From Candidatus Iainarchaeum sp. (GTDB lineage: Archaea > Iainarchaeota > Iainarchaeia > Iainarchaeales > GCA-2688035), in contig JAFCCO010000003.1 in the NCBI GenBank assembly GCA_017610175.1, positions 1 to 64,000 of the forward strand: 64,000 nt of DNA, written 5' to 3'. The position numbers and the translations under genes were made by a program. The notes under the pieces were generated by a model. It did not search any database. It worked only from the letters and a program-made list of their open reading frames with translations, and had not been told where the DNA came from. Below, piece by piece: positions 5,186 through 19,538 of the stretch. Numbering within the stretch: the first letter of the stretch is position 1; the number at the start of each line of letters is the position of its first letter.

Positions 5186-5292
5186 GTAACCCGAACCCCA
5201 AAATAATTCTGCGGGAAAGGGCATTTAAAGCGAACAGTCCAATTGCGGAATGTTTAAATTAGGGAAATGCGTTTATATTTTCAGGTTTAAAA

Positions 5293-6072
5293 ATGAACAA
5301 AAGAATTGCATTGGTTTTCGCCATTTTGCTTGTTTTGTCAAGTCTTGCAAGCGCACAGGTCTACCAAATTACCACCAAATCCATTGAAATAGCGGTGGAC
5401 GAAGATGGTGGAGCACAGATTACCGAAAAGTTCTTCCTAAGCTTTCCAGACGCATACCAGGTACAGCTGTTTCGCGAGGAAATTGTGGATATCGGGGTTG
5501 ATTTGTGGGGCTGGCAACAGTTAAACGATGAATTCAAGCCAACCCTTGGGAAGGAACAGGACCAGGTTGTAAGCGATATTGGCTTTGTTGAAAACGACTT
5601 CAAATACCTTGAAATCAAGTATACCTTGAAAGAGCCTTTGATGGCAAAGCAAAGCGAAACAAGCAGGCGGGCCGAATTTGCGCTGAACGAAAAGTTCTTC
5701 AGCGGTTTTTTGGACGGAAGCCTGTGGGTTCTTCCAACAAATGTTTCAATAATCATAGATTTGCCGCTTCAGGCAGAACTTACAAATGACATAAAGCCGG
5801 AAGCAAATGTTTCAGGAAACAGGATTGTTTGGACAGGATACAAAAGCACAAACGTGCTCTCCTTGAAATACACGCTCTGGAAACAAATATCCACAGTAAC
5901 CCTAAACGAGCTTGCGGCAGGAATTGCACAAAGTGAATTGTTTACGCCTTTGCTGGGTGTCTCAGTAGTAATACTGCTTGCAATTGTGTGGAAAAGAAAG
6001 GCAATAGCCGGCAAAATAGAAAGCTATCTTGTTGAAAACAGCGAGTTTGCAGAAGCAGAAGAAGAGGATTAA
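5293..6072 (+). CDS. Secreted, C-terminally membrane-anchored hypothetical protein
   Basis: Signal peptide (ASA|Q), beta-rich ectodomain, TM helix followed by WKRK and an acidic tail. Confidence 0.75.
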   Translation: MNKRIALVFAILLVLSSLASAQVYQITTKSIEIAVDEDGGAQITEKFFLSFPDAYQVQLFREEIVDIGVDLWGWQQLNDEFKPTLGKEQDQVVSDIGFVENDFKYLEIKYTLKEPLMAKQSETSRRAEFALNEKFFSGFLDGSLWVLPTNVSIIIDLPLQAELTNDIKPEANVSGNRIVWTGYKSTNVLSLKYTLWKQISTVTLNELAAGIAQSELFTPLLGVSVVILLAIVWKRKAIAGKIESYLVENSEFAEAEEED

Positions 6073-6137
6073 TTAACTGATTTTAGTGAAATAGTTACCT
6101 TTAAATATGGGGGAAGCCCCAATATTTACGAGAGAGC

Positions 6138-6503
6138 ATGTTTTTCAATTTCTTAAACGCAGTGCTTGGTTTCGACATAGCCTGGTTTGTATGGCTAATA
6201 GAACACAACCTGTTCTATGTATTCGCATTTATCACGTTGTGCTTCTTCTTCTGGGGAAACAGCATGAAGAAAGCAGTCATAGTAACTGTTCTCCTAAGCA
6301 TAGTTGCATGGGCCTGGGTTGACTTTGAACTCATCAGCGGATGGGTTTTGTTTGCAGGCGGATTCCTCTCCATATACTACGTGACAAAAATGGTGATTAT
6401 GGTGTTTGCCGAAAGCATGCCGTCGCTGAAAAACAAGCTCATACTTGTCAGCGAAATACAGTTCTTTGCGCTGCTGATAATCTACAATCTTTTCTTGAGG
6501 TAA
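6138..6503 (+). CDS. Small multi-pass membrane protein (paralog A)
   Basis: 121 aa hydrophobic ORF similar to 6695-7045. Confidence 0.75.
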   Translation: MFFNFLNAVLGFDIAWFVWLIEHNLFYVFAFITLCFFFWGNSMKKAVIVTVLLSIVAWAWVDFELISGWVLFAGGFLSIYYVTKMVIMVFAESMPSLKNKLILVSEIQFFALLIIYNLFLR

Positions 6504-10906: not shown

Positions 10907-12309
10907 AACAAAGTAGATTGCTTGTGGTCCAAGTCTTCTTCAGGCTCTTTTTCAGCAGCTTTTGTTTCCTCCGGCTGCTCAAACTGCTTAAGGCGGTGCT
11001 CTCCCAAAGCGGAGAACGACCTGCGCTTTTCAACAATGTGCTTTTGCTTCAACTCAAGTGCCTTCTCAAGAACTGCGGTTGGCTTCTTTGCGCCCGGTTT
11101 TGCATCAAGCATGAACGCAATTTCCTTCCCATCCAAATCAAATTCGGCAGAAAGCCTTGCGGCACGCTCCTTGTCCTTGAAAAGCATTTTCAGGTAAACC
11201 AAATCGCTTGAAATAACTTCGCGCGGGCTGCTGTGCACTTTTTTTCCAATCTTTCTCCCCAGCTCTTTTTTCATGGCGCGCAAAGAGGATGATGCGCTGA
11301 GCTTTTTCAAAAGCTGCGGAAACTGAAGCTTAAGCCAGCCATGGCACTCCTGCGCCTTGCTCATCCCAACCCCGCTTGTAAACAGCTCGGAACTGTAGCG
11401 CTTGAAGCCATAGTGCTGCCTGTTGAATATTCTGCCCTCAAATATGTCCGCCCTTGAAAGAACATTGAATGCGTTTGCAACATCCGTGGGATCAGCATAA
11501 GCACGCGGAATATTTTCCTCAACCCAGCGAAAAAGAAGGTCATTGCTTATCTCGGATGAAAAGCGGGCCTTTCTGATTTCCCCAACCGTCTTGCCCTTGA
11601 AAATTGTTTCCACAACCTTGAAAACATTCTCCTGCCGCTCCCTAAAACCAAGTGTTGAAACAGCTTCCTCATCCACTTTTCCCGAAAGGGAAAGTGTCTG
11701 CGTATCAAGAAGTGCAGACCTGAAATCACCCTTGCAGTTCTTCGCAAGCCCCTTTACGGCATCAGGGTCAAATTCAATGCCCTTATCAGTTAAAAGTTGC
11801 TTGAGCCTGCTTGCAATGCTAAGGTAATTTATTCTCTTAAAGGACATAAGCTGCGACGCCTGCCTGATGGGCGCGAGCTTCTGGTCCTTGTAAATATTGT
11901 TGGCGGTAAGAATGACCGGATTTTTTGACTCCTTGATAATTTTGACAATTGCTCCCGCGCCACCCCTGTCCCTTGACTGCAGGCCGTCTATCTCATCTAA
12001 AAGAACAAGCCTTTTGGAGCCCGAAAAAGATGCCCCCTGTGATGCCACCCCAACGATTCGGTCAATTGTGTCCTTGTTTCTCAAATCGCTTGCGTTAAGC
12101 TCAAACACACTCCAGTTGAACTGCTTTGCCAACAGAAATGCAAGGCATGTTTTTCCAACACCTGTTGCCCCAAAGAACAAAAGAGGTTTCTGTGGCTTGC
12201 CCTCACTCCAAGCAGTAGCCCATTTCCTGGCTTCGTCCACAATTTCAAAGTTCCCAATAAATTCCTCAAAGGTTTTGGGAAAATGCTCGTCGGTCCAAAG
12301 CCCGGTCAT
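10903..12309 (-). CDS. rfcL: Replication factor C large subunit
   Basis: LWTDEHFPK, Walker A GATGVGKT, ELNASDLR, LLDEIDG, C-terminal PIP-like QSTLF. Confidence 0.95.
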   Translation of the reverse strand: MTGLWTDEHFPKTFEEFIGNFEIVDEARKWATAWSEGKPQKPLLFFGATGVGKTCLAFLLAKQFNWSVFELNASDLRNKDTIDRIVGVASQGASFSGSKRLVLLDEIDGLQSRDRGGAGAIVKIIKESKNPVILTANNIYKDQKLAPIRQASQLMSFKRINYLSIASRLKQLLTDKGIEFDPDAVKGLAKNCKGDFRSALLDTQTLSLSGKVDEEAVSTLGFRERQENVFKVVETIFKGKTVGEIRKARFSSEISNDLLFRWVEENIPRAYADPTDVANAFNVLSRADIFEGRIFNRQHYGFKRYSSELFTSGVGMSKAQECHGWLKLQFPQLLKKLSASSSLRAMKKELGRKIGKKVHSSPREVISSDLVYLKMLFKDKERAARLSAEFDLDGKEIAFMLDAKPGAKKPTAVLEKALELKQKHIVEKRRSFSALGEHRLKQFEQPEETKAAEKEPEEDLDHKQSTLF

Positions 12310-12734
12310 TTTTTGCCCCGCCTTGTTTTTTTTGGAGGAGGCTTTTTCGGCTTTGGTTTTGGCTTCTTAACAACTTTCTGTTTCTCAAGGTTCTTGATCC
12401 GTGCAGATGAAAAGCCCTCAATCTCGCGAATCGTCTTCCAAAAATCAGGCATTAGCATACTACCCCATCCTTTTTTTGGAATGCGCCCTGTTGCCCCAAC
12501 TGTAGCCAAAATATCACGCTGTGTAAGAACAGCCAGCCCGCGCGCACTTTTTTTCGGGTTTATTCCAAGCTTCACTTCAAGCAAGGCCATTTTCCTCAGT
12601 TGCTTTAAGATGGCAATCAGTTTGTCCGCACGCCCCTTAAGCTCCTTGTCCTTGGAGCGGCTTGACGCTAAAAGAATTTCCCCTCCGCGCGCCATCCTGT
12701 CTGCAGATTTCGAATCCCTCGGTTTTTCAGCCAA
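12306..12734 (-). CDS. Basic hypothetical protein with Lys/Pro-rich tail
   Basis: ORF whose stop overlaps the rfcL start; ends KKPKPKPKKPPPKKTRRGKK. Start uncertain. Confidence 0.55.
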   Translation of the reverse strand: MAEKPRDSKSADRMARGGEILLASSRSKDKELKGRADKLIAILKQLRKMALLEVKLGINPKKSARGLAVLTQRDILATVGATGRIPKKGWGSMLMPDFWKTIREIEGFSSARIKNLEKQKVVKKPKPKPKKPPPKKTRRGKK

Positions 12735-12801
12735 AACTCAATCCCCTAAAATATTTAAAGCCCCAATTATGTTTTTATTACAACCCCACCTAAAAATTTC
12801 T

Positions 12802-13998
12802 ATGCAAATTGGGGTGGTTGGAAAACCAAGCAGCGGAAAAAGCACGTTTTTTGCGGCAGCAACAATGATTGATGTGGGGATTGCAAACTACCCCTTCACC
12901 ACAATTGAGCCAAACAAGGGAACAGGCTTTGTGAGGGTTGAATGCATTGACAAGGAATTCAATGTGCAATGCAATCCAAGGCACGGTTATTGCAAGAATG
13001 GAATAAGGCATGTTCCTGTTGAATTGGTTGATGTGGCGGGGCTTGTTCCCGGTGCGCACCTGGGCAAAGGAAAGGGAAACGCATTCCTTGATGATTTGAG
13101 GCAGGCAGCCGTACTTGTACATGTTGTGGATGCATCCGGCTCAACAAACGAAAAGGGAGAGCCGGTAGCGGCAGGAAGCCACGACCCCTGCAAGGACATA
13201 GAGTTCCTTGAAACTGAAATTGATTTGTGGTTTTTGGGGATTATTGAGAAGAACTGGGGCAAGCTTGCAAAAATGCCTTTGGGGGGAACAGCCGCAACCG
13301 TCGCAGCGCTTGCGCAGGCCTTAAGTGGAATTGGCGGGGGCGAGGCAACAGTTGAAAAAACACTGCAAAAAACCGGGCTAATTGAGAAAAAGCTTGGGGA
13401 ATGGACCGGTGAAGAGAAAATGGAGTTTGCAACAAAACTTAGGGAAACCTCAAAGCCAATTGTTATTGCAGCCAACAAAATGGACATTGCCGGCTCAAAG
13501 GAAAACCTTGAAAAAATGAGGGAAAAGTTTCCGAAAAAAACAATCATCCCCTGCTCCGGCTTTGCAGAGCTTGCGCTAAAGAAAGCCGCAAAGGAAGGGT
13601 TTATAGATTACCAGCCGGGAAACCCAAAGTTTGAAAAGTTAAAAGAGCTAAATGAAAAGCAGGAGAAGATGCTTTCGCTTGTGGAAGAAAAGGTTCTAAG
13701 CGAATTTGGAAGCACAGGTGTGCAAGAGGTATTGGACAAGACCGTGTTTGATGCGCTTGGATACATTGCCATTTTTCCTGCTGGTGCAAAAAAGCTCGCT
13801 GACTCGGAGGGAAATGTTCTGCCCGACTGCCTGCTGATGCCTGGGGATTCAACCGCGCAGGACTTTGCGTTCAAACTACACACTGATATGGGAAAGGGAT
13901 TTATTCGCGCAATTGATGTTAAGAAAAAGACAATGGTTGGAAAGGGCCATTTGCTAAAGCACCGCGATGCAGTAGAAATCGTTTTCAAGAAACCCTAA
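12802..13998 (+). CDS. ychF: Obg-family YchF/Ola1-like translation-associated NTPase with TGS domain
   Basis: GKPSSGKST, YPFTTIEPN, DVAGLVPGAH, NKMD motifs and C-terminal TGS (AFKLHTD). Real start is the ATG at 12802. Confidence 0.95.
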   Translation: MQIGVVGKPSSGKSTFFAAATMIDVGIANYPFTTIEPNKGTGFVRVECIDKEFNVQCNPRHGYCKNGIRHVPVELVDVAGLVPGAHLGKGKGNAFLDDLRQAAVLVHVVDASGSTNEKGEPVAAGSHDPCKDIEFLETEIDLWFLGIIEKNWGKLAKMPLGGTAATVAALAQALSGIGGGEATVEKTLQKTGLIEKKLGEWTGEEKMEFATKLRETSKPIVIAANKMDIAGSKENLEKMREKFPKKTIIPCSGFAELALKKAAKEGFIDYQPGNPKFEKLKELNEKQEKMLSLVEEKVLSEFGSTGVQEVLDKTVFDALGYIAIFPAGAKKLADSEGNVLPDCLLMPGDSTAQDFAFKLHTDMGKGFIRAIDVKKKTMVGKGHLLKHRDAVEIVFKKP

Positions 13999-14286
13999 TT
14001 ATTCCTGCAAAACAGTTGTTTCTGTTGTTTTGGAAACAGTTTCGGTCATGGAAGGGAGGAGCTCTTCCTTTGTTTCTGTTTTGAGTTCCTTCTCGGTCTC
14101 AACAACTTCCTTCATTACCTTTACCATTACCTGCTTCTTGTCCTTTAACTTTGAAAGAGTGTAGTAATAAGCGTTTATTACCTCATCAAGCTTCAGGCTG
14201 CGCTTGTAGCCAAGCCTTGCAATTTCCTTGAAATAAATCTGCACAATCCTTGTTGCAATATCTTCATTACTCAAACCCTTAACCAT
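13999..14286 (-). CDS. Small hypothetical protein, paralog of the C-terminal domain of the upstream Lys-rich protein
   Basis: LSNEDIATRIVQIYFKEIARLGYKRSLKLDEVINAYYYTL aligns without gaps to the C-terminus of 14298-15329. Confidence 0.8.
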   Translation of the reverse strand: MVKGLSNEDIATRIVQIYFKEIARLGYKRSLKLDEVINAYYYTLSKLKDKKQVMVKVMKEVVETEKELKTETKEELLPSMTETVSKTTETTVLQE

Positions 14287-14297
14287 CAAAACACCCC

Positions 14298-15329
14298 TTA
14301 TACTCTGCCCTTGTCGATTATGGCTTCGACTTCGGTGAGTTCTATGCCCTTGCGCTCAACTCTTGCAAGCGCATAAAAGTATGCGTTAATTACCTCGTCT
14401 AAAGTAAGTTTTCTCTTCAGGCCGTGCCTTGCGACCTCTGTGAAGTACACGTCAAGCATTTTCAGCGCTATCTCCTCTTCACAAAGCTCCTGCCCCGCCC
14501 CCCTGGTTTCTGAAACTATCTTCTTGACTGTTTCAATTCGTTCCTTTTCGCGGACCTGCAATTTCTTCATTGCCTCATTAACAATTACCGCAACCTTTTC
14601 AGCAGGGAAAATTTCCCTTGTTACAACAACCGGCTTTCGCACAGTCCTTTTAACCTTTATAACGCGGTTAACCTTTGGCTTTGCCCTCTTCACAGGCTTT
14701 TTCTTAATTGTCTTTTTCTTGACCATTTTTTTCTTTACGGTTTTTTTTCTAATAACCTTTTTTGCCTTCTTCTTTGGCTTTGGCTTTGCTTTTGCCTTTG
14801 GCTTTGGCTTTGCTTTTGCCTTTGGCTTTGGCTTTGCTTTCACCGGCTTTCTTCTTTTCTTCTTTGGCGGATTCTTAAGCCTGTTCCAGGCAACGATGGA
14901 CTGCTTCATGTTTTTGCCCTGCTTAAGCTGCATTGAAATAAAAATATTGTAAGCGGTTCTTTTCTTTGATTTCTTGGCCTGCTCACGCTTTTTCTTTCCC
15001 CAAAGTGCGGCTGCCTGCTTAAAGGTAAGCCCCTTCTTAATCTGCTGCCGCATAAAGCGGTTGTAATCGGAGAGGCCTGCCCTCTTCTTCTTCTTTATAA
15101 GCTTCTCAATTTCTGCCTTCAAAGCCTCAAGGTCCTTTGCGTGCTTGGAAGTTTTCTTAGAAACAGTTTTTGTGAGTGCAACCTCTTTCTTCAGGCCCTT
15201 TCGCAAAGCCTTAATCTGCTTTGTGACTTTTTTGGTTGGCTTTGCAGCCTTCTTCCTGACCGGCTTTTTTGCCGATTTCCTGGAAGGCTTTTTAGCCCTT
15301 GAAACCTTTTTTGCCTTCTTAACAGCCAT
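14298..15329 (-). CDS. Extremely Lys-rich, histone H1-like protein with two HMG/YABBY-like helical repeats
   Basis: K/A/P/R-rich tracts; repeats LSDYNRFMRQQIKKGLTFKQAAALW and RTAYNIFISMQLKQGKNMKQSIVAW; conserved C-terminal domain shared with the next gene. Confidence 0.8.
   Translation of the reverse strand: MAVKKAKKVSRAKKPSRKSAKKPVRKKAAKPTKKVTKQIKALRKGLKKEVALTKTVSKKTSKHAKDLEALKAEIEKLIKKKKRAGLSDYNRFMRQQIKKGLTFKQAAALWGKKKREQAKKSKKRTAYNIFISMQLKQGKNMKQSIVAWNRLKNPPKKKRRKPVKAKPKPKAKAKPKPKAKAKPKPKKKAKKVIRKKTVKKKMVKKKTIKKKPVKRAKPKVNRVIKVKRTVRKPVVVTREIFPAEKVAVIVNEAMKKLQVREKERIETVKKIVSETRGAGQELCEEEIALKMLDVYFTEVARHGLKRKLTLDEVINAYFYALARVERKGIELTEVEAIIDKGRV
14773..14840 (-). repeat. 24-nt tandem repeat (about 2.8 copies) encoding AKAKPKPK
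   Basis: tttggctttggctttgcttttgcc at 14773-14796 and 14797-14820, plus a partial copy at 14821-14840. Confidence 0.9.
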
Positions 15330-15436
15330 AAAGTTCACTCATTACGATTAATGTATTATATATTTACTGTTCTAGTGTTTTTATTTGTTTCGATAACGCA
15401 AATGAATTAAAAAAACCTTCAGAAGCCAATATTTTC

Positions 15437-16645
15437 ATGATGGTACTTGTCTTTCTGGCATTAATGGCACTTGTCATTTTTCTCGGGGTTTTTGGGGAAT
15501 TTGTTTTCAGCAAAACAAAAATTCCGGATGCACTCTGACTGATTGCGGTCGGATTTATTGCAGGGCCCTTGCTTGGGCTTGTGCCCCAGCAGCAACTTTG
15601 GACAATAGCACCTTTCTTCTCCGCAATTGCGCTAATGGTAATAATGTTTGAGGGCAGCTTGCACCTCAATATCTATGACATAATAAAGAACGCGCCAACC
15701 TCTGTTCTTCTTGCGGTTGTCGGATTCTTCATCAACATGGCGGCAATAACTTTGATTCTGGAGGGATTTGCAGGCGTTGGCTATCTGCAAAACTGGACCC
15801 TCACAAACAGCATTCTGCTTGGCTCAATTTTGGGCGGAATCAGTTCACTTGTTGTCCTTCCGCTTATAAAAACTGCGAAACTCAACAACAAGATTTCAAA
15901 CATTCTCACCCTTGAAAGCAGCCTAACCGATGTGCTTGCCGTGGTCATAACAATCGCAATAATTCAGTTTGTGCTGATTCCTGGAAACGGGGTGCAGGGA
16001 ATTGTAAAAGGGGTTATTGCAAACTTTTCAACAGGTGCAATGCTGGGGCTCTTGATTGGAATGATCTGGCTTTACGTTCTTGAATTCTTCAAAAATAAGG
16101 AAAGGCTTTACAGGCCCAACTACATGCTTACATTCGCATGCCTGCTGTTGCTCTATGCTTTTACGGAATTTGTGGAGGGGAGCGGTGCCATTGCCGCGCT
16201 TGCATTCGGGCTGGTGCTTGGAAATGCATTGCAGCTGCAGAAAATGCTCAGGCTGGAGCAAAAAATAAGGCTGAATTCAAGGGTTGTTGAGTTCAACAGC
16301 CAGGTGAGCTTTTTTGTGAAGACATTTTTCTTTGCATTAATCGGGCTGCTGCTGTTTATTGAGACCGGAACACTTCTTGTTTCCATTGCGGTCGTTGCGG
16401 CGGTAACACTTGCAAGGCCGGTGGCGGTTTGGATTGGAACAATCAGGGAAACCATCCCAAAAAAAGACAAGGCAATAGTAAATGGCCTGATTCCAAGAGG
16501 ATTGGCTGCGGCGGTGCTTGCCATTCTTCCTGCAAGTTATGGGCTGCCTGGAACGGAAGCATTCAGCGGAATAGTGTTCACAGTAATAATTGCCTCGATT
16601 GGAATTACAATGGTTTTGTTCTACATGAGAACAAAAAAAATTTAG
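15437..16645 (+). pseudogene. NhaP/CPA1-type cation:proton antiporter interrupted by an in-frame TGA at 15536-15538
   Basis: From ATG 15437: MMVLVFLALMALVIFLGVFGEFVFSKTKIPDAL*LIAVGFIAGPLLGLV..., in frame with the 15569-16645 ORF carrying LESSLTDV, FFVKTFFF and PRGLAAAVLA motifs. Confidence 0.75.
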
Positions 16646-17766
16646 TCAAGGTATTTTAGCACTGCATCTTTCGGGACCATTAAAGAAATCTTTCTTGTCC
16701 TGCCGCGCACGCCCTTTTCAGTGAATGCCGCCCTAATTAGGTTGAGCGATTCAAGCTTTGAAACCATTGCCCTAAAGCTTCGCTCAGTAAGCGGTTTTTC
16801 AACAGAGGAACTGTACTTCTTAAACAGTTCGCCAGTGCTTGCCTGACCATTGCTTGGAACAAGCGAAAGCAGTGCCTTTTCGTGTTCTGAGAGTGATGAA
16901 ACATATTTCTTTACGCCCGAGGCATCAACCTCCGCAAAAACCTGCTGAAGGTGTTCGGGTGAAAGCTGCGAAGCATTTTCCTTTTCCGCAAGCCTGCCGG
17001 CTCGAAGCAGGCACTCGATTGCAATTCTTGCGTCCCCCCCAAGCTTTGCGGCGTGGGCTGCGGCAACATTGATTGTTTCCTTTTCAATGGCAGAGTCAAA
17101 GAAAGCATACTGTGCACGCTCGCGCAGAATGTCCTTGAGCTGCTGCGGATTGTATGGTTCGAACAAAATTGTCTGGTGCGCAAGGCTGCTTTTAACACGC
17201 GAATCAAGTTTTGAGGAGAAAGAAAAATCGTTGCTGATCAGAACAATGCCAAACCTTGCCTTCTCAAATTCAACAACGCGAAGCAGGTCATAGAAAAGCT
17301 TGCTTGCCTCATCAGCATACATAAGCTGGTCAACCTCGTCCAGCACAATAATCGGGGTAAACTTGGCGCGCTTCAAAGCGAAAAGAAGTTTTGTGTAAGC
17401 TTCATCAGTTGCAATTCCCCTGCGCGGGGTCGGCTCCCCCAAAAAATTGCTTATTTCGGTGAGGATTCCGTGCCTTGTGTTGAACTCAAAGCAGTTTAAG
17501 TAAAGGGCCTTTGCCCTGTCAGAGAATTCCTCAAGCTCCTTAACCACATATTTTACTGCAACGGTCTTTCCTGTCCCGCTTTTTCCAAGCACAAGGGAAT
17601 TTTGCGGCTTTTTGCCCTCGGTAATTGGCTTTAAAGCAAAAACAAGGGAATCAATCTCTGCATCGCGGTGAGGCAGCTTCTCCGGAACAAATTCAGGGTA
17701 GAGAAAACGCTCGTCCCTGAAAATTGAGTTTTCCCGCGATTTTTTGGCAAAAATATTGGTTCCCAT
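16642..17766 (-). CDS. cdc6: Orc1/Cdc6 replication initiator
   Basis: FVPEKLPHRD, GKSGTGKT, VLDEVDQL, FEPYNPQQLKDIL, GDARIAI and C-terminal wHTH (GVRGRTR). Confidence 0.95.
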   Translation of the reverse strand: MGTNIFAKKSRENSIFRDERFLYPEFVPEKLPHRDAEIDSLVFALKPITEGKKPQNSLVLGKSGTGKTVAVKYVVKELEEFSDRAKALYLNCFEFNTRHGILTEISNFLGEPTPRRGIATDEAYTKLLFALKRAKFTPIIVLDEVDQLMYADEASKLFYDLLRVVEFEKARFGIVLISNDFSFSSKLDSRVKSSLAHQTILFEPYNPQQLKDILRERAQYAFFDSAIEKETINVAAAHAAKLGGDARIAIECLLRAGRLAEKENASQLSPEHLQQVFAEVDASGVKKYVSSLSEHEKALLSLVPSNGQASTGELFKKYSSSVEKPLTERSFRAMVSKLESLNLIRAAFTEKGVRGRTRKISLMVPKDAVLKYLD

Positions 17767-17826
17767 GCACTAAATTTAGGGCAGAAGTGGTTAAAATGTT
17801 TTGCAGAAAATAATTAAACTGGGAAA

Positions 17827-18648
17827 ATGGCATCAAAAATACTGTTTGGAACGGCAGGGGTTCCAATATCCACAAAATCAAGGGATTCTGTCTCAGGCAT
17901 AAAGAGGGTTAGGGAGCTTGGGCTTGATGCAATGGAGCTTGAGTTTGTGCGGGGGGTTTCCATGGGACAGGAAACCGCCAAGAAAGTTGCAAAAACCGCA
18001 ATGGAAGAGAACATTGTTCTGAGTGTGCACGCACCATACTACATCAACCTAAACAGCGAGGACGCAAAGAAAAAGCAGGCAAGCAAGAAAAGAATTTGGG
18101 ACTCAATGGAAATTGGAAACATATGCGGTGCACAGACCGTTACATTTCACCCTGCGTTTTATGGAACAGGGTCAAAGGAAGAGTGCATGAAAGAAGTCGA
18201 GAATGCATTAAATGAGCTTGCGGACAAGGCAAGGGAGAAGGGGTTTGGGGTAAAACTCGCCCCTGAAACAACCGGAAAGAACAGCGTTTTTGGAAGCCTT
18301 GACGAAACCGTTGAATTGTGCAGGAGAGTTAAGGGGATTTTGCCAATGCCGGACTTTGCGCATTTGCACGCAAGGTGCAACGGCTGTTTGAAGAAAAAGC
18401 AGGATTTTGTAAAGCTGATTGAAAAAATACCGCGCAAGTATTTGGGTGAACTGCACATGCATGCAAGCGGAATCAATTATTCTGAGAAGGGAGAGCGCAA
18501 CCACCTCACAATGGAGGAAAGCGATTTCAATTACAAAGCAATGCTTGAAGCCTTGAAGGCAAAGAGGGTTTCGGGGGTAATAATCTGCGAAAGCCCAAAC
18601 ATTGAAAAAGACGCGCTCTTGATGAAAAAGTTTTGGGAAAAACTCTAG
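17827..18648 (+). CDS. nfo: Endonuclease IV (AP endonuclease family 2)
   Basis: FGTAGVP, ELEFVRGV, SVHAPYYINLNS, FHPAFY, PETTGK, DFAHLHAR, HMHASGI and ICESP motifs. Confidence 0.93.
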   Translation: MASKILFGTAGVPISTKSRDSVSGIKRVRELGLDAMELEFVRGVSMGQETAKKVAKTAMEENIVLSVHAPYYINLNSEDAKKKQASKKRIWDSMEIGNICGAQTVTFHPAFYGTGSKEECMKEVENALNELADKAREKGFGVKLAPETTGKNSVFGSLDETVELCRRVKGILPMPDFAHLHARCNGCLKKKQDFVKLIEKIPRKYLGELHMHASGINYSEKGERNHLTMEESDFNYKAMLEALKAKRVSGVIICESPNIEKDALLMKKFWEKL

Positions 18649-19538
18649 CCCTTGCTTCCCATAAACAGGCTTACCGCCAACCCTGTTACAAGCGCAACAA
18701 GCGAAGTTGATTGGAAGTATGCAAGGGACAGGAGCTGTTCAATTGGAATTTCGGCCCAAATGAATCCGAGCAATATGGAAAGTGAGCCGCCCACAACAAG
18801 CGCAATAATAAGGTGCCTTATCCCTGTAAGGTAATTGTGGTAAGTTGTTTTGATGAAGATGAATGCCGCAACCAGGAAAAGACCGAAGAAAATAATTCCA
18901 ACCAGTTCGTTTGGGGCTGAAACTGTTACCCCACTGAACACACCGAACTGTGCAACAACCATGTAGCTTAGAACCGCGAGAAGGCTTCTGTCATGGAATG
19001 ATTCAAGCAGTTTCCTAGGGGACAGAGCCTGTCTGGTAAGCATTGCAGGCGACTGCAATTGGGTCGGGGTAATTGCGGGCGCAGCCTTTGCCTCTTTTGC
19101 AAGTTCCTTCTGGAGCTCTGTTTCAACCGCTTCCTTAACATCCTCACGGATTTCACCCATTTTCAATGGCCTTGCCTTGGTCCACTCGCGCTTAACCGAA
19201 AGCAGGGAAATAATTAATGCCACAACCGCAAAAATTACCCCGATTGTTCCAATCCCCAGAACAAAAAGATTTGGGGGGTCAATAAACAATTCAGACTGGA
19301 ACCGCACAAAGAACGCAAGAAGTGAAGCCAGAACTATCAGGAAAAGAATAAACCTTTTGATGAATGAGAGAAGCCAGGAGAACAATTTAATAACAATAAT
19401 CAGCAGGACAAATGCAACAATAACAGTTATTCCCGCAATTGCAATCGCAGATGAATCAAGATTTATCAGCGCAGGCAGGAACTGCTGAAGAAAATAATTT
19501 ACAGGGTCACTTATTATAGCGCCAATTTCAAGATTCAT
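18645..19538 (-). CDS. Multi-pass membrane protein, unknown function
   Basis: About 3 TM helices, a charged helical linker, then about 4 TM helices. Confidence 0.7.
   Translation of the reverse strand: MNLEIGAIISDPVNYFLQQFLPALINLDSSAIAIAGITVIVAFVLLIIVIKLFSWLLSFIKRFILFLIVLASLLAFFVRFQSELFIDPPNLFVLGIGTIGVIFAVVALIISLLSVKREWTKARPLKMGEIREDVKEAVETELQKELAKEAKAAPAITPTQLQSPAMLTRQALSPRKLLESFHDRSLLAVLSYMVVAQFGVFSGVTVSAPNELVGIIFFGLFLVAAFIFIKTTYHNYLTGIRHLIIALVVGGSLSILLGFIWAEIPIEQLLSLAYFQSTSLVALVTGLAVSLFMGSKG

Follow-up and report, generated by a model that had tools for sequence, protein, structure and literature searches.

We describe a pair of adjacent genes on the minus strand of a 64,000-nucleotide stretch of contig JAFCCO010000003.1 from Candidatus Iainarchaeum sp. 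(hereafter the window), encoding a long, strongly basic protein and a short protein that share a domain which we call X. The pair is a conserved, unnamed family of the Iainarchaeota/"Diapherotrites", belonging to the DPANN archaea. It is real, undescribed and moderately novel, in that a probable HMG-type DNA binder is combined with an orphan, putative pairing domain in a gene pair with a conserved link to orc1. We tentatively favour a model according to which the pair forms a nucleic-acid-binding module of two subunits, specific to this lineage and in genetic linkage with orc1/cdc6, and has a replication-origin or replication-linked architectural role, over a purely genome-wide role in chromatin, which we regard as rather unlikely. 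Judged from its sequence, the long subunit very likely binds nucleic acid. An earlier note made from the DNA letters had proposed a chromatin system composed of an H1-like/HMG-like protein and a stand-alone copy of its C-terminal domain; beyond this, we report the linkage to orc1/cdc6, natural fusions of long and short proteins, a wider distribution of the X-only gene and a number of hairpins of 0, 1 or 2. The two genes are the following:

14298..15329, minus strand: long gene (P0001), 343 amino acids, ATG at 15329, net charge +91, pI 10.9, 34 homologues
13999..14286, minus strand: short gene (P0002), 95 amino acids from the ATG at 14286, with a TTG one codon upstream (14289) as alternative start

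Both genes and all motifs quoted in the earlier note are found in the translations, the short gene lying downstream with 11 nucleotides between the stop of the long gene and its own ATG. That the short protein contains a stand-alone copy of the C-terminal domain was likewise borne out, X being a domain of about 46 amino acids with 52% identity between the two proteins (24/46, E 2e-15). The ATG at 14286 is preceded by a GGGGTG Shine-Dalgarno-like motif, and a 95-amino acid form of the short protein is present in a public collection (P0037, 100% identical over 99% of the query).

Architecture of the gene pair and its distribution in the phylum

The long protein was modelled by AlphaFold2 (AF2) from a 35-sequence alignment, with a mean predicted local distance difference test score (pLDDT) of 70.4 and a predicted template modelling score of 0.25. 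The resulting segments are, from the N- to the C-terminus:

15234..15329, minus strand: K/R-rich N-terminal tail, amino acids 1-32, 15 K+R in 32 residues; predicted disorder, residues 1-27 with pLDDT <50
15078..15233, minus strand: single long helix of 52 residues, amino acids 33-84 (AF2); putative coiled coil that may self-associate
14964..15077, minus strand: hairpin 1, amino acids 85-122, with basic lead-in, S-x-Y-N-x-F helix, G turn and F..A...W helix; AF2 helices 88-98 and 103-121
14865..14963, minus strand: hairpin 2, amino acids 123-155, with the same motif (KKRTAYNIFISMQLKQGKNMKQSIVAWNRLK); AF2 helices 126-136 and 141-152
14610..14864, minus strand: K/R/P-rich linker including (AKAKPKPK)n, amino acids 156-240, 45 K+R in 85 residues; predicted disorder
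14490..14609, minus strand: helix before the X domain, amino acids 241-280; AF2 helix 243-277
14301..14489, minus strand: X domain of the long protein, amino acids 281-343; AF2 helices 284-301 and 310-339

The hairpin unit is a 38-residue helix-loop-helix with two helices and no third one in the AF2 model, in which 10-residue pLDDT blocks of the hairpin region reach 93-97 over residues 91-120 and 131-150 and 87 for 121-130, compared to averages of 44-53 for the linker (~161-240). Lysine and arginine account for 34% of the long protein and 53% of its linker, and a 24-nucleotide DNA tandem repeat of 3.4 copies (14761-14841) underlies the (AKAKPKPK)n tract. Of the coiled coil proposed in the earlier note, the 52-residue helix 33-84 is predicted and its coiled-coil nature stays putative. 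The H1-like character that the note had claimed holds at the level of composition, as K/A/P-rich low-complexity tracts are common to the long protein, histone H1 and bacterial H1-like proteins. The winged-helix globular domain of histone H1, in contrast, has no counterpart in the long protein: the Linker_histone model (PF00538) finds nothing at E<=10 in the host genome (1.24 Mb in 34 contigs, 90% complete; Pfam models were run on all six frames) and is absent from the hmmscan of P0001, so that the likeness is compositional only.

Searches for relatives returned 34 homologues of the long protein at E<=1e-3 among 8000 scored candidates and 46 of the short protein at E<=0.01 among 52 candidates, none of them with a Pfam family on record; the named homologues of the long protein are labelled 'Candidatus Diapherotrites archaeon', i.e. 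DPANN. The two repeats LSDYNRFMRQQIKKGLTFKQAAALW and RTAYNIFISMQLKQGKNMKQSIVAW are offset by 38 residues and identical at 12 of 38 positions, and every one of the 15 aligned two-repeat regions keeps repeat residues such as Y, N, F, G and W unchanged. The number of homologues together with this invariance shows the combination of repeats and shared domain to be more than chance.

A phyletic profile of the pair, as suggested in the earlier note, was run on a survey sample of 201 genomes of the phylum. X is found in 138 of these, comprising 47 of the 58 high-quality genomes and 55 of the 76 genera; nearly all X-bearing genomes belong to one order and two to other orders of the same class. It was not found in the remaining 63 genomes, including all 20 of family f6. 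The hairpin profile, termed A3 and introduced below, is found in 92 genomes, with a single match in all but three of them, and Orc1/Cdc6 in all 201.

The number of hairpins varies between families. Two are present in f1, f8 and some other families and one in f2, f10, f13, f15 and f23, and the window's own family holds genomes with none: the 'long' genes of G174 (L008:1055-1486, a 144-amino acid frame) and G177 (L009:1768-2244, 159 amino acids) encode the K/R/P arm and X and no coiled coil. This reduction is not a masking artefact, because these loci contain no Ns. G040, G155 and G186 gave no A3 hairpin match either. The hairpins are therefore dispensable, which counts against the module as we read it. 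A short X-only gene occurs with no hairpin protein detected in f4 (X in 9/9 genomes, hairpin in 0/9), f7 (12/13 and 0/13) and f22 (7/7 and 0/7), where it stands alone after orc1. A 311-amino acid protein of f7 (L019:2082-3014, plus strand, G027) combines an N-terminal coiled coil and a middle X with a different module at the C-terminus, which contains GVTYYLHNKGKLYYFSKDP and is not matched by Pfam; X thus seems to join more than one kind of partner module. The constant core of the system therefore consists of X, accompanied by a basic arm in those genomes that have a long partner.

The small X-only gene is more widespread than the hairpin partner (138 vs 92 of the 201 genomes) and, by parsimony and on an unrooted comparison, is probably the older partner. 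The direction of change is thereby probably the reverse of that supposed in the earlier note, which had taken the short protein for a truncated modulator. Because of its wider distribution and of a conserved ETKEEL-x-P motif of its own, the short protein is unlikely to be a mere truncated antagonist. The analogy to H-NS and its partners Hha/YdgT, H-NST and StpA, in which a DNA binder is likewise accompanied by a small partner sharing or binding the oligomerisation module, is functional only; the pair has no sequence or fold relation to the H-NS system and differs from it in the more widespread small partner with its own motif.

Probable relationship of the hairpins to HMG-box and YABBY domains

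We consider it probable that the hairpins are relatives of the helix-1/helix-2 hairpin of HMG-box and YABBY domains, having a short loop and no helix 3. One line of evidence for this is the A3 profile, which was built from 15 two-hairpin regions and searched against 1.84 billion protein representatives. The search gave 189 matches at E<=1e-3, in which 26 own-family rows are followed by 124 further listed matches. The Pfam scan covered 64 of these 124 outside matches (P0098-P0170 minus nine fragments of <60 amino acids, P0171-P0221 being left out) and placed HMG_box, HMG_box_2, YABBY or HMG_WDHD1 at E<=0.01 on 19 of the 64, PPR or DUF6434 on none. The whole-protein Pfam cut-off for HMG is exceeded by five of the 64, i.e. 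P0110, P0124, P0135, P0138 and P0140, for which the A3 E-values are 1.9e-8, 1.1e-6, 5.5e-6, 7e-6 and 7.4e-6, respectively. In P0110 and P0135, A3 aligns over helix 1, the G-turn loop and the W-helix (helix 2) of each box; these boxes run on into a helix-3-like segment that the archaeal units do not have. Most matches to HMG-labelled proteins are accounted for by the hairpin-2 half of the profile. Reading by eye, we find about 12 of 32 positions common to the hairpins and the short-loop boxes of P0110 (basic lead-in, S-x-Y, G turn, W), and the hairpins carry the signature residues of HMG helices 1 and 2, with a KKKR/KKR lead-in, S/T-x-Y/F-x-x-F/Y and a W in helix 2.

The closest outside relatives among the listed matches are metagenomic proteins with short-loop HMG-like repeats (P0098, P0099, P0101, P0110, P0121 and P0124; E 3e-16 to 1e-6). 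They have the same short G-turn hairpin, S-G-Y-Q-x-Y-V-S-E-x-M-K-x-G-x-K-M-x-E-A-A-x-x-W-K, and differ in keeping a helix-3-like E-x-Q-x-x-Y-K-x-K-A, in having 3-5 units and in lacking an X domain. In five of the 64 scanned proteins (P0098, P0099, P0101, P0121 and P0124), 2-5 short-loop HMG-like boxes are fused to Toprim_C_rpt, the topoisomerase C-terminal repeat, scoring above its cut-off, and the hairpin of these outside relatives therefore again has a DNA context. Hairpins of the same type (KRKPSAYNIFVGEQLKAGKSF..AV..WKK) also occur singly at the terminus of small proteins of 92-112 amino acids that have no PHROG family (P0107, P0113, P0115, P0119 and P0155).

The best single Pfam match of the family is YABBY (PF04690), which at E<=10 matches six of 35 members, with P0019 scoring best (21.5 bits, E 3e-4). 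In the host genome, the YABBY model has one match at E<=10, at 15033-15137 (13.1 bits, E 0.146), which covers the last part of the long helix together with the first of the two helices of hairpin 1. Neighbours of residues 78-160 in ESM feature space are HMG_box/YABBY clusters (0.76-0.81), mostly viral, and serve as a lead only.

Compared to HMG-box proteins (PF00505, PF09011), Pfam-positive members of which are reached by the hairpin profile, the archaeal hairpins are alike in the basic lead-in, the helix-1 S-x-Y-x-x-F and the conserved helix-2 W. The HMG box is a three-helix L-shape, whereas no helix 3 is predicted for the archaeal hairpins, and the loop between their helices 1 and 2 falls short of that in the canonical boxes of P0138 by about 8 residues. 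Tandem units flanked by basic regions are common to HMGB and the long protein. A complex of the pair would also have a mildly acidic tail at its disposal; in HMGB the acidic tail is located in cis, whereas that of the archaeal pair belongs to a different subunit and is weak, with a median net charge of -4. With YABBY the hairpins share a helix-loop-helix without helix 3 and a near-identical SAYNRF[IM] start. Plant YABBY proteins consist of an N-terminal C2C2 zinc finger and a two-helix HMG-like domain; the long protein has no N-terminal zinc finger, a single cysteine (C283) and a shorter loop.

Several results weigh against this relationship. The link to P0138, which has a canonical long-loop box, is limited to KKRxPSAYNxFI at the start of helix 1; when 85 hairpins from archaea were compared with two canonical boxes of P0138 by hhalign, 16 columns aligned with a probability of 88%, and this link is circular because P0138 was chosen by that very segment. 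Four of the five Pfam-positive bridge proteins pass by summed weak matches, single passing stretches being found only in P0138. No family member scores above any Pfam or NCBIfam cut-off, that of YABBY being 28.6 bits compared to the 21.5 bits reached at best. The HMG_box, HMG_box_2 and HMG_WDHD1 models find nothing in the six-frame genome at E<=10, and HMG models appear neither for P0001 at E<=10 nor in the list of 25 families displayed for the 35 members. Sub-cut-off matches of PPR_2 (8/35) and DUF6434 (7/35) to the same hairpins are about as frequent as those of YABBY (6/35) and similar to them in score.

These scores raise the alternative, which we rate as rather doubtful, that the hairpins are convergent basic alpha-hairpins, PPR-like or DUF6434-like, that the HMG label reflects a coincidence of motifs and that the protein is a nucleic-acid binder by virtue of its basic arms. 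It would account for the missing helix 3 and the loop shorter than in canonical boxes, and is consistent with the searches of known structures: Foldseek (PDB, BFVD) and VIA, queried with the whole model, listed coiled coils but not a single HMG box, and the PDB sequence-profile search with A3 gave RGS4 only (E 0.74), a chance row. Chance rows were also all that a PDB sequence search returned for P0001, and NCBIfam gave far-sub-threshold rows only. However, the fold searches hardly tested the hairpins because their rows were dominated by the 52-residue helix, and the A3 matches at E 1e-5 to 1e-8 fall on proteins scored as HMG boxes by Pfam, in P0110 with the shared positions described above, whereas none of the scanned matches carries PPR or DUF6434. 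A PPR array in particular was rejected: PPR_2 (PF13041) reaches 21.8 bits at best compared to a cut-off of 30, and 0-2 units spaced by 38 residues contrast with arrays of 35-residue repeats. The HMG/YABBY-like nature of the repeats claimed in the earlier note is thus supported at superfamily level, by the A3 profile, the sub-cut-off YABBY matches and the ESM neighbours, and not at the level of a Pfam cut-off or a fold match.

The X domain, its possible pairing and the position after orc1/cdc6

The AF2 model of the short protein (mean pLDDT 71.9) comprises two parts:

14137..14286, minus strand: X domain of the short protein, amino acids 1-50, 16 invariant columns in 40 sequences; AF2 helices 8-25 and 34-49
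14002..14136, minus strand: amino acids 51-95, a helix with the conserved ETKEEL-x-P motif followed by a Thr/Glu-rich, mildly acidic tail

In 35 of 40 homologues, this tail carries a net negative charge. In the long protein, E285, Y295, L310, L321 and R323 of X are invariant in 35 sequences. X has no Pfam or NCBIfam match above cut-off, no PHROG family and no fold match, and a PDB sequence-profile search with it returned a designed repeat protein only, as a chance row. Pfam matches of Nop52 (11/40) and Gcd10p (3/40) on homologues of the short protein are weak and far below cut-offs. The ESM neighbours of the short protein, i.e. the Iainarchaeota cluster to which it belongs itself (0.87) and a Microcaldota cluster without a name (0.85), are leads only. 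In a tree of X domains (56 rows, 52 columns; L001 and L002 were excluded because they are copies of the window), the long-X and short-X sequences do not form reciprocally monophyletic groups; the X rows of the long proteins of f1 and f8 form one starred clade beside the short-X rows of f1, and the domain is too short to resolve its history.

We lean, by a small margin, towards the X domains of both proteins forming a heteromer. Long and short genes adjoin in every inspected locus that has both, and single open reading frames with two X domains represent natural long+short fusions (L022 in G130, 427 amino acids; L021 in G144, 450 amino acids; P0033, 398 amino acids); in family f10, a hairpin and a short-type X are present in one protein. 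Complex modelling of residues 236-343 of the long with 1-82 of the short protein gave 'weak support', with a score of 0.38 (runs 0.38, 0.37 and 0.39) versus 0.00 for the best control; the runs have at least 74% of their contacts in common and a partner pLDDT of at least 65. Among 80 solved complexes 58 attained the mark applied, as did 2 of 110 mismatched pairs, and scores <=0.60 came from only 7 of the 80 solved complexes and from both mismatches. A caveat to the pairing is that 0.38 falls into a range in which a pass is wrong more frequently than right, unless the pairing was likely in advance. The oligomerisation of the shared domain proposed in the earlier note is accordingly supported indirectly by the invariant adjacency and the natural fusions, and weakly by the complex model.

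The gene that separates the pair from its conserved upstream neighbour orc1/cdc6 in the window, and orc1/cdc6 itself, are located as follows:

16642..17766, minus strand: orc1/cdc6 (Pfam Cdc6_lid, Cdc6_C, AAA_22), conserved upstream neighbour of the pair
15569..16645, plus strand: Na+/H+ exchanger gene (Pfam Na_H_Exchanger), between orc1/cdc6 and the long gene

For a comparison across the phylum, the listed X rows (108 genomes) were set against the listed best-Orc1 rows (150 genomes), 63 X and 256 Orc1 rows lying outside, which yielded 100 genomes with both. X and the best Orc1 are located on the same contig in 87 of these 100 and on different contigs in 13. In each of these 87 genomes, X is encoded on the strand of orc1/cdc6 and downstream of it, at a distance of no more than 5 kb, and of no more than 3 kb in 82 of them; kin genomes within this count are not independent. 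The typical order is orc1, the long gene where present, and the short gene, followed by a convergent ychF and then the gene for the RFC large subunit, gaps of 26-150 nucleotides being common in the orc1-(long)-short array. In most other families orc1 abuts the pair directly, and the opposite-strand antiporter also lies between orc1 and the pair in three of 11 other f1-type loci (L003, L007 and L011); the exchanger looks like a lineage-specific insertion into an older cluster.

The orc1 synteny is suggestive of a functional tie with replication initiation and is not proof of it. Two features of the locus argue against reading too much into it: co-transcription with orc1 is not obligatory because in the window the opposite-strand antiporter separates orc1 from the pair, and part of the synteny may be historical because the conserved block also holds the unrelated ychF and RFC large subunit genes. 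As side observations, Orc1/Cdc6 is matched twice at E<=1e-20 in the host genome (G000), once in the window, and most genomes of the phylum likewise have two such matches; a search with a motif resembling the origin recognition box, allowing two mismatches, gave 27 matches versus 26.1 expected, i.e. no origin signal. In G014, a single-contig genome, the X gene (L027) lies at C1:366-608, a few hundred bases from the start of the record, and orc1 at 5201-6298; this layout fits an origin-proximal position of X, and the start of the record may be arbitrary.

Possible function, significance and genomic context

In the replication-linked model that we tentatively favour, the long subunit would bind, and probably bend, DNA via its K/R/P-rich disordered arms and the two tandem HMG/YABBY-type hairpins, while its N-terminal helix of about 50 residues would probably mediate self-association. 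The X domain of the long subunit would pair with that of the small subunit and thereby bring in the latter, whose conserved ETKEEL-x-P helix and mildly acidic tail may modulate binding or recruit another factor. In HMGB1, the acidic tail tempers DNA binding in cis. The acidic Thr/Glu tail of the small subunit could temper DNA binding as well or recruit a further factor, for which Orc1/Cdc6 would be the obvious candidate. A more specific version, which we think unlikely as it stands, would have the small X protein as a lineage-specific Orc1/Cdc6 cofactor and the long subunit as an architectural factor of the HMG-box type, which would anchor the small protein to origin DNA and bend or open this DNA. 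If true, archaea would have an equivalent of those DNA-bending proteins that assist initiators, such as IHF/HU with DnaA or HMG/AT-hook modules with ORC, and there would be direct evidence of the HMG/YABBY hairpin being a cellular archaeal gene and not a eukaryotic and viral invention.

The pair could instead be a general nucleoid-associated one, with the long protein coating or condensing DNA genome-wide, the short protein capping or tuning its oligomers, and the position after orc1 reflecting inherited gene order or origin-proximal dosage. The extreme basicity and the H1-like K/A/P tract fit this, as do the unrelated ychF and RFC large subunit genes in the conserved block and the fact that here the pair is cut off from orc1 by the inserted gene and apparently has its own TATA-like element; as textbook knowledge has it, HMG-type hairpins are non-sequence-specific DNA binders in eukaryotic chromatin. 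On the other hand, histone and Alba genes are already present in the genome, the absence of detectable X from 63 of 201 genomes, among them all of f6, is unexpected for a core chromatin protein, and the same-strand placement downstream of orc1 in 87 of 87 cases across many families is tighter than dosage by itself requires, so that we judge this explanation to be on the unlikely side. Still less probable is an RNA- or ribosome-associated basic protein, acting by PPR-like RNA binding in ribosome biogenesis or translation beside the ribosome-associated GTPase gene ychF. The sub-threshold PPR_2 matches, the weak Nop52 and Gcd10p matches on the short protein and the conserved neighbourhood of ychF would be in line with such a role; all of these Pfam matches, however, are far below cut-offs, 0-2 hairpins at 38-amino acid spacing form no PPR array, and ychF is convergent with the pair and not co-directional, the co-directional partner being orc1/cdc6. 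Lastly, a mobile-element, viral or toxin-antitoxin-type cassette sitting here by chance would match the arrangement of two genes with a small second one and the mostly viral ESM neighbours of the hairpins. We regard it as highly improbable given the fixed chromosomal place next to orc1 in all same-contig cases, the single copy of the long gene in most listed genomes (as judged from the hairpin matches), the lack of any PHROG family match and a GC content of 0.426 in the 2-kb bin holding the pair, inside the window range of 0.422-0.489.

DNA benders of the HMG-box type are regarded as eukaryotic. A conserved cellular DPANN family with HMG/YABBY-like hairpins would extend the range in which this module is known, and the place right after orc1/cdc6 together with the orphan, putative pairing domain makes the pair a concrete and testable candidate for an accessory factor of archaeal replication initiation. 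To our knowledge, not many accessory factors of this kind have been described. Although the organisms are uncultured, the two proteins could be produced recombinantly, both being small. The archaeal chromatin literature searched names histones, Alba, MC1, Cren7/Sul7 and Lrs14 and no HMG-type protein, and the accessible part of a survey of 44 model proteomes lists the HMG-box as Eukaryota-only (PMC13539645). The literature searched contains no description of HMG-type proteins in DPANN/Iainarchaeota or of orc1-linked genes there, with nothing relevant in the accessible parts of PMC7463775 or 10.64898/2026.05.13.725050; candidate lists of nucleoid-protein surveys may bear on this.

The host genome encodes a histone (PF00808, 63.8 bits, C26:3740-3928) and Alba (PF01918, 72 bits, C8:1425-1610), both away from the pair, so that the pair is not a replacement for classical chromatin proteins; its two proteins have no match to either model. 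A second, weak histone-fold match at C5:59333-59425 contains an internal stop codon. Upstream of the long gene, a candidate promoter element was read from the sequence:

15355..15366, minus strand: TATA-box-like element TAAATATATAAT, ending 26 nucleotides upstream of the ATG of the long gene

An Rfam scan of 12000-19000 found no family. On the other side of the pair, the open reading frame at 12283-13998 (plus strand), which contains a YchF/YGR210-like GTPase, runs about 170 codons further upstream over the 5' end of an opposite-strand RFC-like gene; these upstream codons are probably non-coding, because translation from 12796 yields complete GTPase domains.

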